This document shows positions 1 to 4,282 of a DNA stretch of 4,282 nucleotides, piece by piece; the first letter of the stretch is position 1; every line of letters starts with the position of its first letter. The position numbers and the translations under genes are program-made. Below the pieces are notes generated by a model. The model ran no database searches and was not told the origin of the DNA. It was given only the letters and a program-made list of their open reading frames with translations. The DNA is taken from assembly GCA_045106415.1 (NCBI GenBank), contig JBGCEP010000041.1:1-4282 (forward strand). Reading direction: 5' to 3'. The stretch is from Oligoflexales bacterium (lineage in GTDB: Bacteria > Bdellovibrionota_B > Oligoflexia > Oligoflexales > Bog-1112).

Positions 1-644
1 TTTTTTGTTTTATCAAAATAAGTAATAATCCCGCCGTCGAGTTGGTAAACCGATTCGAATCCTTTTTGCTTCATGTAGGAAGTTGCTTTTTCACAACGGA
101 TGCCACCGGTGCAAAAGGTTACGATAGGGATATTCTTTTTACCTTCTAAATTTTGATCAACCCAGTCAGGAAATTGGTCAAAAGACTGAATGTTGGGGTT
201 AACAGCATTTTTGAATGTACCCATATCAACTTCATAGTCATTACGAGTATCGAGGATGATCATATCTTTATTATCATTTTGCCACTGTAGAAAATCTTCA
301 GGGGAGATGTATTCTCCTGTGATTTCATTTGGCTCAATATCTTTTCGAAGAGTAATGATGTGATCTTTGACTTTGACGAGCATGCGACTAAAGGCAGGGC
401 TGTCGTGTTGGTTTACTTTAAAGAGTACGTCCTGGAACAAAGGATTGCTGTGTATATGCTTTTTAAAGCGAGTGATGTTGTCAGGAGAGCCGGTAACCAT
501 TCCATTGATACCCTCTTCTGCGAGGAGAATCGTGCCAAGCATATCAAGTTCTTGCGTAACTTTTTTGAGTTCAGTCCGCAGCTCTTGGGTCTTGTTAATC
601 TCTATGAATTTGTAGAAACTAAGGATTTCGTATGTTTGGCTCAT
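1..644 (-). CDS. trhO: tRNA uridine(34) hydroxylase TrhO / YceA (UPF0176) rhodanese-related protein, 3' end beyond the window edge
   Basis: Manual translation from ATG at 644 (cat 642-644): MSQTYEILSFYKFIEI...LGTILLAEEGINGMVTG...TFCTGGIRCEKATSYMKQKGFESVYQLDGGIITYF. The FYKF, GTILLAxEGING, CTGGIRCEKA and VYQLxGGI motifs are characteristic of TrhO. A purine-rich SD-like AGAGAGGAAA lies at 651-660 on the minus strand. Confidence 0.93.
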   Translation of the reverse strand, partial: MSQTYEILSFYKFIEINKTQELRTELKKVTQELDMLGTILLAEEGINGMVTGSPDNITRFKKHIHSNPLFQDVLFKVNQHDSPAFSRMLVKVKDHIITLRKDIEPNEITGEYISPEDFLQWQNDNKDMIILDTRNDYEVDMGTFKNAVNPNIQSFDQFPDWVDQNLEGKKNIPIVTFCTGGIRCEKATSYMKQKGFESVYQLDGGIITYFDKTK

Positions 645-890: not shown

Positions 891-1961
891 ATGCGTTTTT
901 TAACTTGTGTTTTTTTACTGATATTGTCGAATAGTGGTTTTAGTCTAGAAGATTATTCAAATGATAGAAGAGTTCATGTGAATGTTAAAGACCGTGTTTT
1001 TGAGTTTCACAAATCGAGCTTTATTGGCCTTGAAGACACAGTTCTTTATAAGAAGATCTTTAGCACAAACTTCGCTGATTCTGTGGATCTAACATATGCC
1101 GCGGGTGTTTATTTAGATACTTTCGAAGGTATTCACTTTGCTATTGAACAAGATTTATCTTATCCGGGTTCAGGTAAAAGAATTTTACCAAAGTGGTTTG
1201 CCGTTCACCGAAACCTTGTTTTTGATGTTTTACCTATTTTCTCAAGCTATGTAAGTCTGGCGGATATTTATTCATTTTACGCTTCTGATCTGAACTTCCT
1301 TGGTCTTAAAGGAAAAGTTGCTGGCCCTGGTTGGTCGAAAATCCGGACTGAGTCGTTTGAGGGGCGAGATTATATCTATTATATTTTGACTATAAATGGT
1401 GCTGATTTTGAATTTGTAGAAGTCCCAGGAGAAGTAGCGGATGAAAGTTCTTTCATGATGTCTCATTGGGTTACCCATCAGCACTGGAGGGCTGTAACAG
1501 GTCAGAGCCCCGCAACGTTTTCTGGCGCTGGTGCCAATTTCCCATTGAAGAATGTTTCTTACAATTGCATTATGAATGAATTTTTTCCTCCTTTGAATGC
1601 AGCGTTTACGGCAGCAGGTTTTGAGGGAGAGCTTTCACTTCCAAGTGATTCGAATTGGCAGATAGTTGCAGATGATTTTGCTGTGAATAAGCCTCAGTAT
1701 TCAGATGTTGGTAAAAGCGCTCTTTCAGATGCTTCTCCAGCTCTTGTTAGGTCAAAATTACGAGGCAAGCTTGGTATGTGGATGTTTGGATCTGTCTGGG
1801 AGTGGGTCGGTATACCTGATGATTTGGGTAATGCTAATCTTCGCGGCGGGAGTTGCTACTCTTCTGTTGAGAGAGTAGGCCCTAACGCGCTGCTTTCGAA
1901 TGACACAGATAGTCGACGTCGCGACTTTGGCTTTCGTTTGTTTAGAGCTAGCACTCATTAA
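891..1961 (+). CDS. exported protein: signal peptide + probable BTB/POZ (KCTD/T1-like) domain + FGE-sulfatase-like CLec domain
   Basis: 356 aa. Hydrophobic N-terminus MRFLTCVFLLILSNSGFS. aa 26-140 has RVHVNVKDRVFEFHKSSF..LEDTVLYKKIFS and ASDLNFLGL, resembling the KCTD BTB pattern. aa ~163-356 has VT..HWRAVTG.SP, FPLKNVSY, LPSDSNW, GMWMFGSVWEWV, RGGS and GFRL, typical of the FGE-sulfatase/SUMF1 fold. GGA upstream at 882-884. Confidence 0.85.
   Translation: MRFLTCVFLLILSNSGFSLEDYSNDRRVHVNVKDRVFEFHKSSFIGLEDTVLYKKIFSTNFADSVDLTYAAGVYLDTFEGIHFAIEQDLSYPGSGKRILPKWFAVHRNLVFDVLPIFSSYVSLADIYSFYASDLNFLGLKGKVAGPGWSKIRTESFEGRDYIYYILTINGADFEFVEVPGEVADESSFMMSHWVTHQHWRAVTGQSPATFSGAGANFPLKNVSYNCIMNEFFPPLNAAFTAAGFEGELSLPSDSNWQIVADDFAVNKPQYSDVGKSALSDASPALVRSKLRGKLGMWMFGSVWEWVGIPDDLGNANLRGGSCYSSVERVGPNALLSNDTDSRRRDFGFRLFRASTH
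1377..1961 (+). repeat. paralogous CLec-domain segment, copy 1 (partner 3347-3958)
   Basis: Roughly half the residues are identical by eye (DFEFVEVPG, FMMSHWVT, FEG, NKPxYSD, WMFGxVWEWVG, FGFRL). Exact 17-mer atgatgtctcattgggt at 1455-1471 and 3443-3459. Confidence 0.9.
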
Positions 1962-2041: not shown

Positions 2042-3958
2042 ATGGTAAAGTTTGTTTCATTTTTGTTGATGTTTTGTTCAGGTTTCGCCCTAGGTATGGA
2101 ATTAGAATTGCATACTGATACGAGGTCGGTTGAGAAGTGGCTGGAAGAGAATCGAAATCTCGCACACCCTGCTGAAATTTTACGAGCTGAATTGTTACTT
2201 CAACACCAGTTGGATGCTATTCCAAAGGGTTATGAAAATTTTCCTAAATTTTCTTTTTCGTTGTCTGGTGAAAATATTTCTGATGAATTGTATCTTCTTA
2301 ATTTAGCTAAAGTGTCAAAAGATTTAGAACGTGCTCAGACCTTAATGGAAGGCCGCTCTGAGTGTTTAGAGGGCTTGGAATGTTTGCGTTCAGGTTCTCT
2401 TGAGATGAAAGCGGATGTTGCGATTGGTTCTGAATCTTCAGAATGCCCTGTGTGTACAGATGGTTTTTTGTCTGGTGAGATTATTGTGAAAGAGAGCTGT
2501 GGTCACATATATCATGCACCTTGTGTGAAGCAGGGTCTTTTGGCGTCATTGCACGGTGGGAATGATAAGAATATCTCTTGTCTTGTTAAGGACTGTCCTG
2601 GGTATTTGTCTCCACTTCAGGCTGCAAGTCTGTGTTTGCAGGAGTCTGTTTCTACACGGATACAGATGCAGAAGATGTTGTTGTCACATTTGGAGAAGGT
2701 GGTTTTTTGTCCATCGTGTGGTTTGGGTGTGAAGCGATCTGAGCATGCAGCAAGTGGTGCGTGTGGCCATTGTGCTAAAGAAGTGTGTTTTGATTGCGGT
2801 TATACATCTCACCGTGGTGAAAGTTGTGATTTACAGTTGGAAAAACAGAAAACTTATAGGGAAGTGTTATCTAAAGGTCTTAATGTAGGTCTTTGCCCCC
2901 ATTGTGACTGTTTGATGGAACGAGGGGAGGGTTGTTCTATCATGCGTTGTGGTGATAACGCTCATACGACGAATGATGTAAGCAATCGAGGTTGTGGTCG
3001 AGAGTTTCAGTGGCCGGATCGCAAGCCTGTACCAAATGATTTGAAAGATATCCCTGATCGTTCGAAAAAAACTATAACGACACATTTTAAGACTTTAAGC
3101 CCTGATGATTTGCAGAGGCATATTTTTGAAGGCAAACCACTTTTTGATATTGCTAATGTCATAGGTGTATCGAGTGTAGAAGAAGCTTTGGATGTGATTC
3201 GTTTGGGTGGCAAAATACGAGGCCGGTTTCTAGCTTCAGAGGTTTCAGAAGGTGATCGAGAGATACTTATGAAGTATGGGTGTTTTTTCATTGATGGAAA
3301 GTCTGAAAAATCTTGGGGCTACACCTATAAGGAAGATGGATTTACTTATTATGTGATGACACTTGCAGGTGTTGATTTTGAGTTTGTAGAAGTACCGGGT
3401 AAGCGTATCTTGGGGATTTTAGGGAAGAGAAAATCTTTTTTTATGATGTCTCATTGGGTAACTCAAGGTCAATGGTTTGCAGTTATGGGAGAGAATCCTG
3501 CGGGTTTTGCAGGCCGTGGCTTAGATTTTCCAATGGAGAGTATTTCTTACAATGATGTTGTGAATAATTTTCTTCCACGTCTGAATGTTTTGCTTCAAGG
3601 CGCTAGTTTTGAAGGAAAGTTTAAGCTTCCTGGTGATGCTCAGTGGCAGAGAATGGCAGATAAGAACGTTGCAGCAGAGTTTGCATCGAACAAGCCAAAG
3701 TATTCAGATTTTGGCCAGAATTGGGATTCAGGACAGCCTCTATCAGTGAAGTCTAAGGATCGAGGAAATCTTGGAGCTTGGATGTTTGGGACTGTTTGGG
3801 AATGGGTTGGAACTCTTAATGCCTCTGGTCTCGTTGCTTTACGTGGCGGCAGTTGGGCCGACTACTCGGAGAACGTGGGCCCTTCGGCGCACTTTTCGTA
3901 CAGGTCTGACCACCGCGCCCGCAACTTCGGCTTTCGGCTCTTGAGAGCTTTACCCTGA
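2042..3958 (+). CDS. exported protein: signal peptide + RBR (RING1-IBR-RING2) E3 ubiquitin ligase module + FGE-sulfatase-like CLec domain; putative DGR target
   Basis: 638 aa, SD-like AGGA at 2031-2034, hydrophobic N-terminus MVKFVSFLLMFCSGFALG. RING1: C135,C138,C153,H155,H158,C161,C180,C185. IBR: C223,C226,C241,C244,C249,C252,H257,C262. RING2: CPHC...ERGEGCSIMRC...GCGREFQW. C-terminal domain has VTQGQWFAVMGENP, FPMESISYND, LPGDAQW, MFGTVWEWV, RGGSW, FGFRL. Confidence 0.9.
   Translation: MVKFVSFLLMFCSGFALGMELELHTDTRSVEKWLEENRNLAHPAEILRAELLLQHQLDAIPKGYENFPKFSFSLSGENISDELYLLNLAKVSKDLERAQTLMEGRSECLEGLECLRSGSLEMKADVAIGSESSECPVCTDGFLSGEIIVKESCGHIYHAPCVKQGLLASLHGGNDKNISCLVKDCPGYLSPLQAASLCLQESVSTRIQMQKMLLSHLEKVVFCPSCGLGVKRSEHAASGACGHCAKEVCFDCGYTSHRGESCDLQLEKQKTYREVLSKGLNVGLCPHCDCLMERGEGCSIMRCGDNAHTTNDVSNRGCGREFQWPDRKPVPNDLKDIPDRSKKTITTHFKTLSPDDLQRHIFEGKPLFDIANVIGVSSVEEALDVIRLGGKIRGRFLASEVSEGDREILMKYGCFFIDGKSEKSWGYTYKEDGFTYYVMTLAGVDFEFVEVPGKRILGILGKRKSFFMMSHWVTQGQWFAVMGENPAGFAGRGLDFPMESISYNDVVNNFLPRLNVLLQGASFEGKFKLPGDAQWQRMADKNVAAEFASNKPKYSDFGQNWDSGQPLSVKSKDRGNLGAWMFGTVWEWVGTLNASGLVALRGGSWADYSENVGPSAHFSYRSDHRARNFGFRLLRALP
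2444..3013 (+). other. RBR E3 ligase module (RING1 2444-2596, IBR 2708-2827, RING2 2894-3013)
   Basis: Cys/His spacing and the order of the three clusters match Ariadne/Parkin-type RBRs. The predicted catalytic Cys298 is codon TGT at 2933-2935. Confidence 0.85.
3347..3958 (+). repeat. paralogous CLec-domain segment, copy 2 (partner 1377-1961)
   Basis: Same alignment as copy 1; for example gattttgagtttgtagaagt (3374-3393) versus gattttgaatttgtagaagt (1404-1423). Confidence 0.9.
3842..3940 (+). other. putative DGR variable region (VR)
   Basis: 33 codons from RGGSW to GFRL: 18 end in C, 9 in G, 6 in T, 0 in A, versus 2 C-ending codons in the preceding 33 (3743-3841). Runs GCC GAC TAC and GAC CAC CGC GCC CGC AAC TTC sit where DGR templates for CLec targets typically carry AAC runs. 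Confidence 0.72.
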
Positions 3959-3962
3959 GTAA

Positions 3963-3984
3963 GCATAAAAGCGAAGCTTTATGC
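3963..3984 (+). promoter_or_regulatory. GAA-loop DNA hairpin, candidate DGR cis-acting target-recognition stem-loop
   Basis: GCATAAAAGC-GAA-GCTTTATGC: 9 bp stem with one bulged A, core GCGAAGC, beginning 4 nt after the TGA stop. No poly-T tract follows. Confidence 0.65.
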
Positions 3985-4055
3985 GATTGTTATCCTTTTA
4001 CCGTTAAGCCTGGCCGGATGGAGGCCAATAATCGGAATCTTTATTTTTAGGTTAA

Positions 4056-4104
4056 GGAGCCGTGAAGGTTAGCGAGCGTGAGCGGGCGGCCTTCAAAGGG
4101 TTCC
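4056..4104 (+). other. long imperfect GC-rich stem-loop between convergent genes (terminator-like or REP-like)
   Basis: GGAGCC (4056-4061) pairs with GGTTCC (4099-4104) and TGAAGGTT (4063-4070) with GGCCTTCA (4088-4095), using three G-U pairs; 17 nt loop AGCGAGCGTGAGCGGGC. Confidence 0.4.
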
Positions 4105-4159
4105 GTTGTTGTGAGATTTTTTTAAAAATTTTTAAGTATAAATCCGGCATTGATCACAC

Positions 4160-4282
4160 CTAATTTTGATTTAGAGAATAAATATCAGATGCAGAATTTG
4201 AAATCATTAATATGATTTTTCTTCGTAGGTCAGTAACACCTGTCACTAAGACTTGCATCTGCCCATCAAGTTCAATGTAAAC
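4160..4282 (-). CDS. 3' end of a convergent CDS, possibly an IS1634-like transposase C-terminus
   Basis: Open frame from the window edge to TAG (cta 4160-4162): VYIELDGQMQVLVTGVTDLRRKIILMISNSASDIYSLNQN*. Resembles from memory the IS1634 tail pattern (xxLTxxRRxILxxxGxxxxxYY), but only 40 aa are visible. Confidence 0.4.
   Translation of the reverse strand, partial: VYIELDGQMQVLVTGVTDLRRKIILMISNSASDIYSLNQN

Follow-up and report, generated by a model that had tools for sequence, protein, structure and literature searches.

A putative DGR variable region in the lectin-like domain of an RBR-containing protein encoded on an Oligoflexales contig

Diversity-generating retroelements (DGRs) act for the most part on the tail fibres of phages, on surface proteins and on the sensors of conflict systems. 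One of the closest described relatives of the locus discussed here is TvpA (Treponema denticola variable protein 1, PDB 2y3c), which, like other DGR proteins of the formylglycine-generating enzyme (FGE) type, carries its variable stretch at the extreme C-terminus of an FGE-sulfatase-like lectin fold. In such DGR variable proteins N-terminal partner domains always precede the FGE-sulfatase (FGS) domain, according to an excerpt of one study (PMC7159879). In this work we describe a stretch of 33 codons, positions 3842-3940, at the 3′ end of an open reading frame (ORF2) from an Oligoflexales bacterium, and we weigh the possibility that it is the variable region of a DGR target. The window, that is the whole stretch of DNA analysed, is one entire assembly contig of 4282 nt. 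ORF2 resembles TvpA in the fold of its C-terminal domain and in the place of the stretch. It differs in its N-terminal partner, an RBR module (RING1, IBR and RING2), and in that neither a template nor a reverse transcriptase is seen in the window. The kind of system is thus a known one, the FGE-type DGR target, and the partner domain is one that we did not meet for any DGR target in the searches and literature covered. The DGR literature covered makes no mention of an RBR partner, and among titles and the opening parts of abstracts none linked DGRs to ubiquitin ligases; supplements to DGR surveys may list target domains of relevance here.

The stretch is in frame with ORF2 and ends 18 nt before the stop codon. 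Its borders are the conserved motifs RGGSW and GFRL, and between them the codon usage of the gene changes abruptly. Eighteen of the 33 codons end in C, nine in G, six in T and none in A. In the 33 codons immediately upstream the third bases are C in 2 cases, T in 16, G in 8 and A in 7, and in the remaining 600 codons of ORF2 they are C in 45, T in 268, G in 153 and A in 134. The sevenfold excess of C-ending codons (18/33 versus 45/600; Fisher, p = 2.8e-11) is accompanied by a depletion of A-ending ones (0/33 versus 134/600; p = 6e-4). These counts include the flanking motifs. Strictly between them (3857-3928, 24 codons) 14 codons end in C, seven in G, three in T and none in A. We also simulated the stretch with its amino acids fixed, drawing synonymous codons from the usage in ORF1 and the rest of ORF2. 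An average of 3.9 C-ending codons was expected, and the observed 18 exceeded every one of the 100000 draws (maximum 13). Amino-acid content thus does not account for the shift, which lies in the choice among synonymous codons.

The base composition tells the same story. The stretch has a GC content of 65.7%, higher than any other 99-nt segment of the entire window, and the remainder of ORF2 has 41.6%. Across the stretch the GC skew drops from about +0.39 to -0.07. When change-points were sought without supervision and blind to the motifs, the best segment for C-ending codons was 3845-3940 (18/32 inside, 46/606 outside) and the best segment for GC over the entire window was 3842-3938. Both coincide with the interval from RGGSW to GFRL. 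By analogy with the relative L012, described below, a variable region may begin up to about 25 nt before 3842. A preliminary description of this DNA, made from its letters, had reported a codon switch at these motifs (18/33 C-ending and 0/33 A-ending codons, 2/33 C-ending just upstream) that runs against the skew of the strand. Both observations were reproduced, and the compositional island is far beyond chance.

A positive control is found in a distant relative. A profile search of 185,579 species genomes returned only distant relatives, 13 loci of at most 33% identity, nine of which come from Bdellovibrionota-type metagenome-assembled genomes (MAGs). One of these loci, L012 (Bdellovibrionales MAG, JAWKNX010000025.1, 40.5% GC), contains a 115-nt repeat pair, with a template repeat at 4199-4313 and a variable region at 1817-1931, and of the 19 mismatches between the two copies 18 fall on template adenines. 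The variable region forms the C-terminal end of an FGE-domain protein. The interval that separates them contains an HRDC domain, a bAvd-like match of 31.4 bits, which does not reach the 40-bit cut-off, and pieces of a reverse transcriptase. This reverse transcriptase is split over several frames (3185-4029), with the YMDD motif in the piece at 3739-3870, and is either a pseudogene or the victim of sequencing errors in the MAG.

The L012 protein is similar to that of ORF2 in several respects. Its genome is low in GC, its N-terminus appears hydrophobic by eye, and BLASTP pairs its RGGSW-GFRI segment with the RGGSW-GFRL segment of ORF2, each of 33 codons at the end of an FGE domain. C-ending codons number 18/33 in its variable region and 70/400 in the remainder of its gene, A-ending ones 1/33 and 125/400, and the core of the variable region has a GC content of 62.6%. 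In ORF2, as in this proven variable region, A-poor and NNC-rich codons are confined to the one stretch. The codon signature of ORF2 is thus one that a DGR produces in a low-GC relative. That said, the two proteins are only 25% identical in the domain, and L012 has no RBR module, a template that is not cognate to the ORF2 stretch and a frameshift-split reverse transcriptase.

Negative controls were obtained from 26 homologous stretches in the related loci. Six rows from locus L013 duplicate those from L006, which overlaps it on one contig, so that 20 stretches are distinct. We counted as a comparable shift a share of C-ending codons at least twice that elsewhere in the gene, combined with no more than two A-ending codons. 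Among the 17 distinct stretches in loci below 50% GC, only those of L012 and L002 show such a shift and the other 15 do not, although a few are mildly enriched in C-ending codons, up to 1.7 times. The L002 stretch (10493-10591; Bacteriovoracaceae MAG, 38% GC) is the end of an FGE domain, with 14/33 C-ending codons against a share of 0.16 elsewhere in the gene and 2/33 A-ending codons against 0.36. It is a candidate for a second variable region of the same kind, and its template, if any, is out of view because the stretch lies at a contig end.

The proteins bear a related mark. A HMMER scan of 1.84 billion representative sequences found 14219 proteins at E ≤0.001 but only 28 at E ≤1e-30; a handful are 52-64% identical. 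In the family alignment no part of the domain varies more than the segment that follows GG(S/C)W, which is arranged around a fixed VGP and GFRL. Lysine, glutamate, glutamine, methionine and tryptophan, which NNC codons do not encode, make up 15 of 193 residues in this segment in eight family members and 627 of 2906 elsewhere (p = 8e-7). In 15 control stretches the count is 56/352. The family set excludes P0022, which lacks the motif, and the control set excludes the GC-rich loci L001, L003 and L004 and the variable-region-like L002 and L012.

What kind of domain carries the stretch? Pfam assigns it to the FGE-sulfatase family (PF03781). A structure model of the C-terminal 214 residues, built on a nine-row alignment (pLDDT 66.8, pTM 0.70), has TvpA as its top match among solved structures (E 3e-8, TM 0.64), at about 20% sequence identity, and enzymes of the FGE fold rank lower. 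The stretch therefore sits at the C-terminus of a C-type-lectin fold; DGR variable stretches lie at the C-terminus of such a fold or of an Ig fold. True formylglycine-generating enzymes share PF03781 and the fold with ORF2, and their two catalytic cysteines follow closely on the GGS motif. No cysteine occurs among the 60 C-terminal residues of ORF2, so the domain is taken to be a binding scaffold rather than such an enzyme.

In short, a compositional island of exact extent lies at the C-terminus of a lectin fold, and the same signature occurs in the proven DGR of a relative. On the strength of position, fold, extent and the positive and negative controls, rather than of a template, we consider it probable, at roughly 70%, that 3842-3940 is the variable region of a DGR target. 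The earlier proposal of such a region stands as far as the lectin fold and its likeness to TvpA, the C-terminal position, the extent shared with L012 and the controlled codon shift are concerned. The template that it placed outside the window was not found in the collections searched, and the sequence that it proposed for this template, like its notion of a recent overwriting, is a conjecture.

If the stretch is a variable region, a template repeat elsewhere in the genome would be transcribed and then copied by the DGR reverse transcriptase, which would insert random bases opposite template adenines. The resulting cDNA would replace 3842-3940 of ORF2. Template positions other than adenine would be copied faithfully, and C-ending, GC-rich codons would thereby be kept in an AT-rich gene. 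Template codons of the AAC type would become NNC, and about a dozen residues on the lectin-like binding face could be changed in this way with no stop codons arising. Under this mechanism the source genome would be expected to hold a template, a reverse transcriptase and Avd, and the element may still be active. A DGR reverse transcriptase usually comes with Avd and is often no more than 10 kb away.

A number of observations weigh against this reading. Neither a repeat search with seed 7 nor blastn with word size 7 found a template repeat in the window, which also has no ORF for a DGR reverse transcriptase or Avd. A two-anchor pattern made from the ends of the stretch had no match in the 185,579 species genomes, no DNA match to the stretch was found in the 13 related loci, and distant blastn against plasmid and phage collections gave none either. 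The L012 template was tried as the cognate of the ORF2 stretch and rejected, with mismatches on all four bases (A 16, T 9, C 11, G 8). At the AAY positions of that template 8 of 11 ORF2 codons are NNC, compared with 10 of 22 elsewhere, a hand count that is too weak to weigh. Several variable positions of ORF2 hold codons other than NNC (TCG three times, GAG, GCG, TTT and AGG). Members of the family differ by small indels within the stretch, a pattern not expected from a single template common to them. The hairpin at 3963-3984 fits the distance and stem length of those downstream of phage DGR targets, which an excerpt of PMC3240598 describes as GC-rich stems of 7-10 bp with 4-nt GRNA loops, 4-34 bp downstream, but its stem is AT-rich and its loop has 3 nt. 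Finally, composition alone cannot separate a DGR product from a GC-rich patch, as the native stretch of the 66% GC locus L003 has 19/33 C-ending codons and none ending in A.

Some of these points can be put in proportion. Distances of over 100 kb between target and reverse transcriptase have been reported (PMC5758913, in part), as have DGR templates ‘elsewhere in the genome’ (PMC7159879, in part), and for this reason a cassette missing from 4.3 kb carries little weight. The contig stops next to the target gene because an insertion sequence (IS) lies about 200 nt downstream, at which the assembly broke, and the ‘orphan’ status of the variable region is probably an effect of this assembly break within the IS element. 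A confident inverted repeat was present in only 34% of the DGRs surveyed in the covered portion of PMC5758913.

The alternative that survives best accepts that a DGR once wrote the stretch, and holds that the gene later lost its cassette or was separated from it, for example by the IS insertion just downstream, so that the sequence would be frozen and not of recent origin. The IS transposase gene ends about 200 nt past the stop codon of ORF2, with the contig ending in it, and the element may have separated ORF2 from a cassette. The tandem paralogue ORF1 shows a weaker bump, as expected of a decaying variable region. Its homologous stretch (1842-1940, 59% identical to that of ORF2) has 10/33 C-ending codons, which is a 2.5-fold enrichment and the maximum of ORF1, together with four A-ending codons and a GC content of 54.5%. 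Either the decay of a variable region or a milder version of the bias in ORF2 could account for it. The frameshift-split reverse transcriptase of L012 is a further point in favour of a relic. However, the shift in ORF2 is as strong as that in L012, whose template persists, and the remote targets already mentioned leave little to be drawn from the absence of a cassette. We regard a frozen relic as possible but doubtful.

Could the island instead be a patch of foreign sequence? Recombination or gene conversion with the FGE-domain gene of a GC-rich organism might have placed about 100 nt in ORF2 without any retroelement. The GC-rich relatives do have stretches with the same third-base profile, both the L003 stretch given above and that of L004 (19/33 C-ending codons). 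A mosaic gene of this type would require two crossovers whose positions match precisely the two ends of the segment diversified by DGRs. Moreover, the search for DNA similarity between the stretch and the GC-rich loci found none (best E 0.7), and six T-ending codons remain in it. This explanation is unlikely.

A further alternative involves no transfer at all, and invokes selection acting locally on codon choice or on the structure of the nucleic acid, or else a general property of this segment of the domain. The C-ending maximum of ORF1 in the homologous stretch and the mild enrichment of a few controls point in this direction. Set against them are the 15 of 17 low-GC controls without a comparable shift, the sevenfold size of the shift in ORF2 and the unremarkable fold of the surrounding DNA (z -1.3), and we consider this explanation very unlikely. 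Weakest of all is an assembly chimera, in which reads from the homologue of a GC-rich organism were joined at conserved motifs: the window is indeed a whole metagenomic contig and the stretch is flanked by such motifs, but reads would have had to be wrongly joined twice in the space of 100 nt. Past the stretch the AT-rich sequence continues in frame, through the stop codon and beyond, and neither the frame nor the VGP core specific to the family is disturbed, all of which makes a chimera highly improbable.

The variable-region reading gains much of its interest from the remainder of ORF2. Pfam matches to zf-RING_2 and IBR were found, and the order RING1, IBR, RING2 is that of eukaryotic RBR E3 ligases such as ARIH2 and HOIL-1. 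Ligases of this class pass on ubiquitin by way of a thioester intermediate. With phmmer a single, weak alignment to human ARIH2 (E ~1e-3) covers residues 133-308, running through RING1, IBR and RING2 to the active-site cysteine stretch, and HOIL-1 and RNF4 likewise match this part. The ten best listed feature matches in a protein atlas are all eukaryotic RBR clusters or have RBR domains, and eukaryotic RBR clusters are the nearest neighbours by both language model and model structure. The RBR label given to ORF2 in the preliminary description is supported by the Pfam matches, the ARIH2 alignment and these atlas neighbours.

In contrast to the eukaryotic ligases, ORF2 lies on a bacterial-type contig beside a UPF0176/rhodanese gene, begins with a hydrophobic segment that looks like a signal peptide by eye, and ends in a lectin-like domain. 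Its scores are weak, and its RING2 has an insertion and a last zinc-binding pair that is not recognisable by eye, although a cysteine aligns within the active-site stretch of ARIH2. The finding of a eukaryotic-type RING1-IBR-RING2 module on a bacterial-type contig is an observation in its own right. The searches met no other protein with this combination, and only the ORF2 protein itself was matched at full length. The N-terminal parts of six relatives (P0002, P0003, P0005, P0006, P0007 and P0151) differ from that of ORF2, and a scan of these six found no RING or IBR domain. As to the sources of the relatives, two are ENA entries and one is an NCBI MAG named Oligoflexales bacterium. The contigs that encode P0005 and P0006 are 27 kb and 21.7 kb long.

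Taken further, the signal-peptide-like start suggests that the ORF2 protein may be secreted, and the RBR module could be an active ligase whose choice of substrate is set by the variable domain. We offer as a tentative proposal that a bacterium related to the Oligoflexales or Bdellovibrionota secretes an RBR-type ubiquitin ligase with a substrate-binding lectin domain that is rewritten by a DGR. If this is true, an enzymatic effector, here a complete RBR module of eukaryotic type, would be linked to hypermutation through the DGR-diversified binding domain to which it is joined, and the rare bacterial RBR proteins would gain a further example. By hypermutation the cell could direct an E3 ligase of eukaryotic type at new molecules of its host or prey. 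Among effectors of the ubiquitin system the protein would be the first to combine delivery of an enzyme with a programmable recognition head.

There is also a practical side. As the positive and negative controls support, codon composition by itself is enough to recognise a putative variable region in an AT-rich genome. This is useful for short metagenomic contigs that do not include the template.

Table 1. Features of the 4282-nt window, listed by position.
Feature	Positions	Strand	Description
UPF0176/rhodanese gene	3..644	-	Start of a UPF0176/rhodanese gene
ORF1	891..1961	+	356 aa; tandem paralogue of ORF2
ORF2	2042..3958	+	638 aa; hydrophobic N-terminus, RING1-IBR-RING2, linker, FGE-type C-type-lectin domain with the putative variable region
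RBR module	2444..3013	+	RING1 ~aa 135-186, IBR ~aa 210-262, RING2 ~aa 285-324
C-type-lectin / FGE-sulfatase-like domain	3314..3955	+	Pfam PF03781 at aa 464-635, E 1.1e-8; scaffold of the putative variable region
Putative DGR variable region	3842..3940	+	C-terminal segment of ORF2 bounded by RGGSW and GFRL, 33 codons; codon and GC shift, change-points, equivalence with L012
G/C-only run of 10 nt	3913..3922	+	Near the 3′ end of the putative variable region; shares the maximum length in the window with 4082-4091
Inverted repeat / hairpin	3963..3984	+	23 nt past the putative variable region; 9 pairs, one bulge, 3-nt loop, AT-rich stem
IS transposase, last 40 codons	4163..4282	-	Contig ends inside; 100% match to the C-terminus of P0152

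The remaining features of the window are summarized in Table 1. Over its C-terminal 200 residues ORF1 is 50% identical to ORF2. Downstream of ORF2 about 320 nt are left on the contig, which finishes within the IS transposase gene, whose full-length counterpart P0152 is a protein of 532 residues with DUF4277 and DDE_Tnp_1 domains, found on two contigs.

With regard to flanking signals, the G/C-only run near the 3′ end of the stretch could possibly be the GC-rich start of an initiation of mutagenic homing (IMH) site, going by the IMH features given in an excerpt of PMC5758913. A scan of 3800-4282 for promoters and terminators found none, and Rfam gave no match over the entire window at E values up to 1. 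The fold of the non-coding DNA at 3959-4105 is not unusual (z -1.6).

The hairpin downstream of the stretch has a counterpart in L012 (2019-2035), which has a GC-rich stem and lies 87 nt past the variable region there. Both hairpins share a GCGAAGC core. Between the hairpin of the window and the transposase gene, the non-coding segment 4007-4101 has a GC content of about 54.5%. It is followed by one copy of a direct repeat of about 46 nt (4102-4147), and the other copy (839-884) lies just upstream of ORF1, so that the pair brackets ORF1 and ORF2. This repeat may be an IS-end sequence or the remnant of one.

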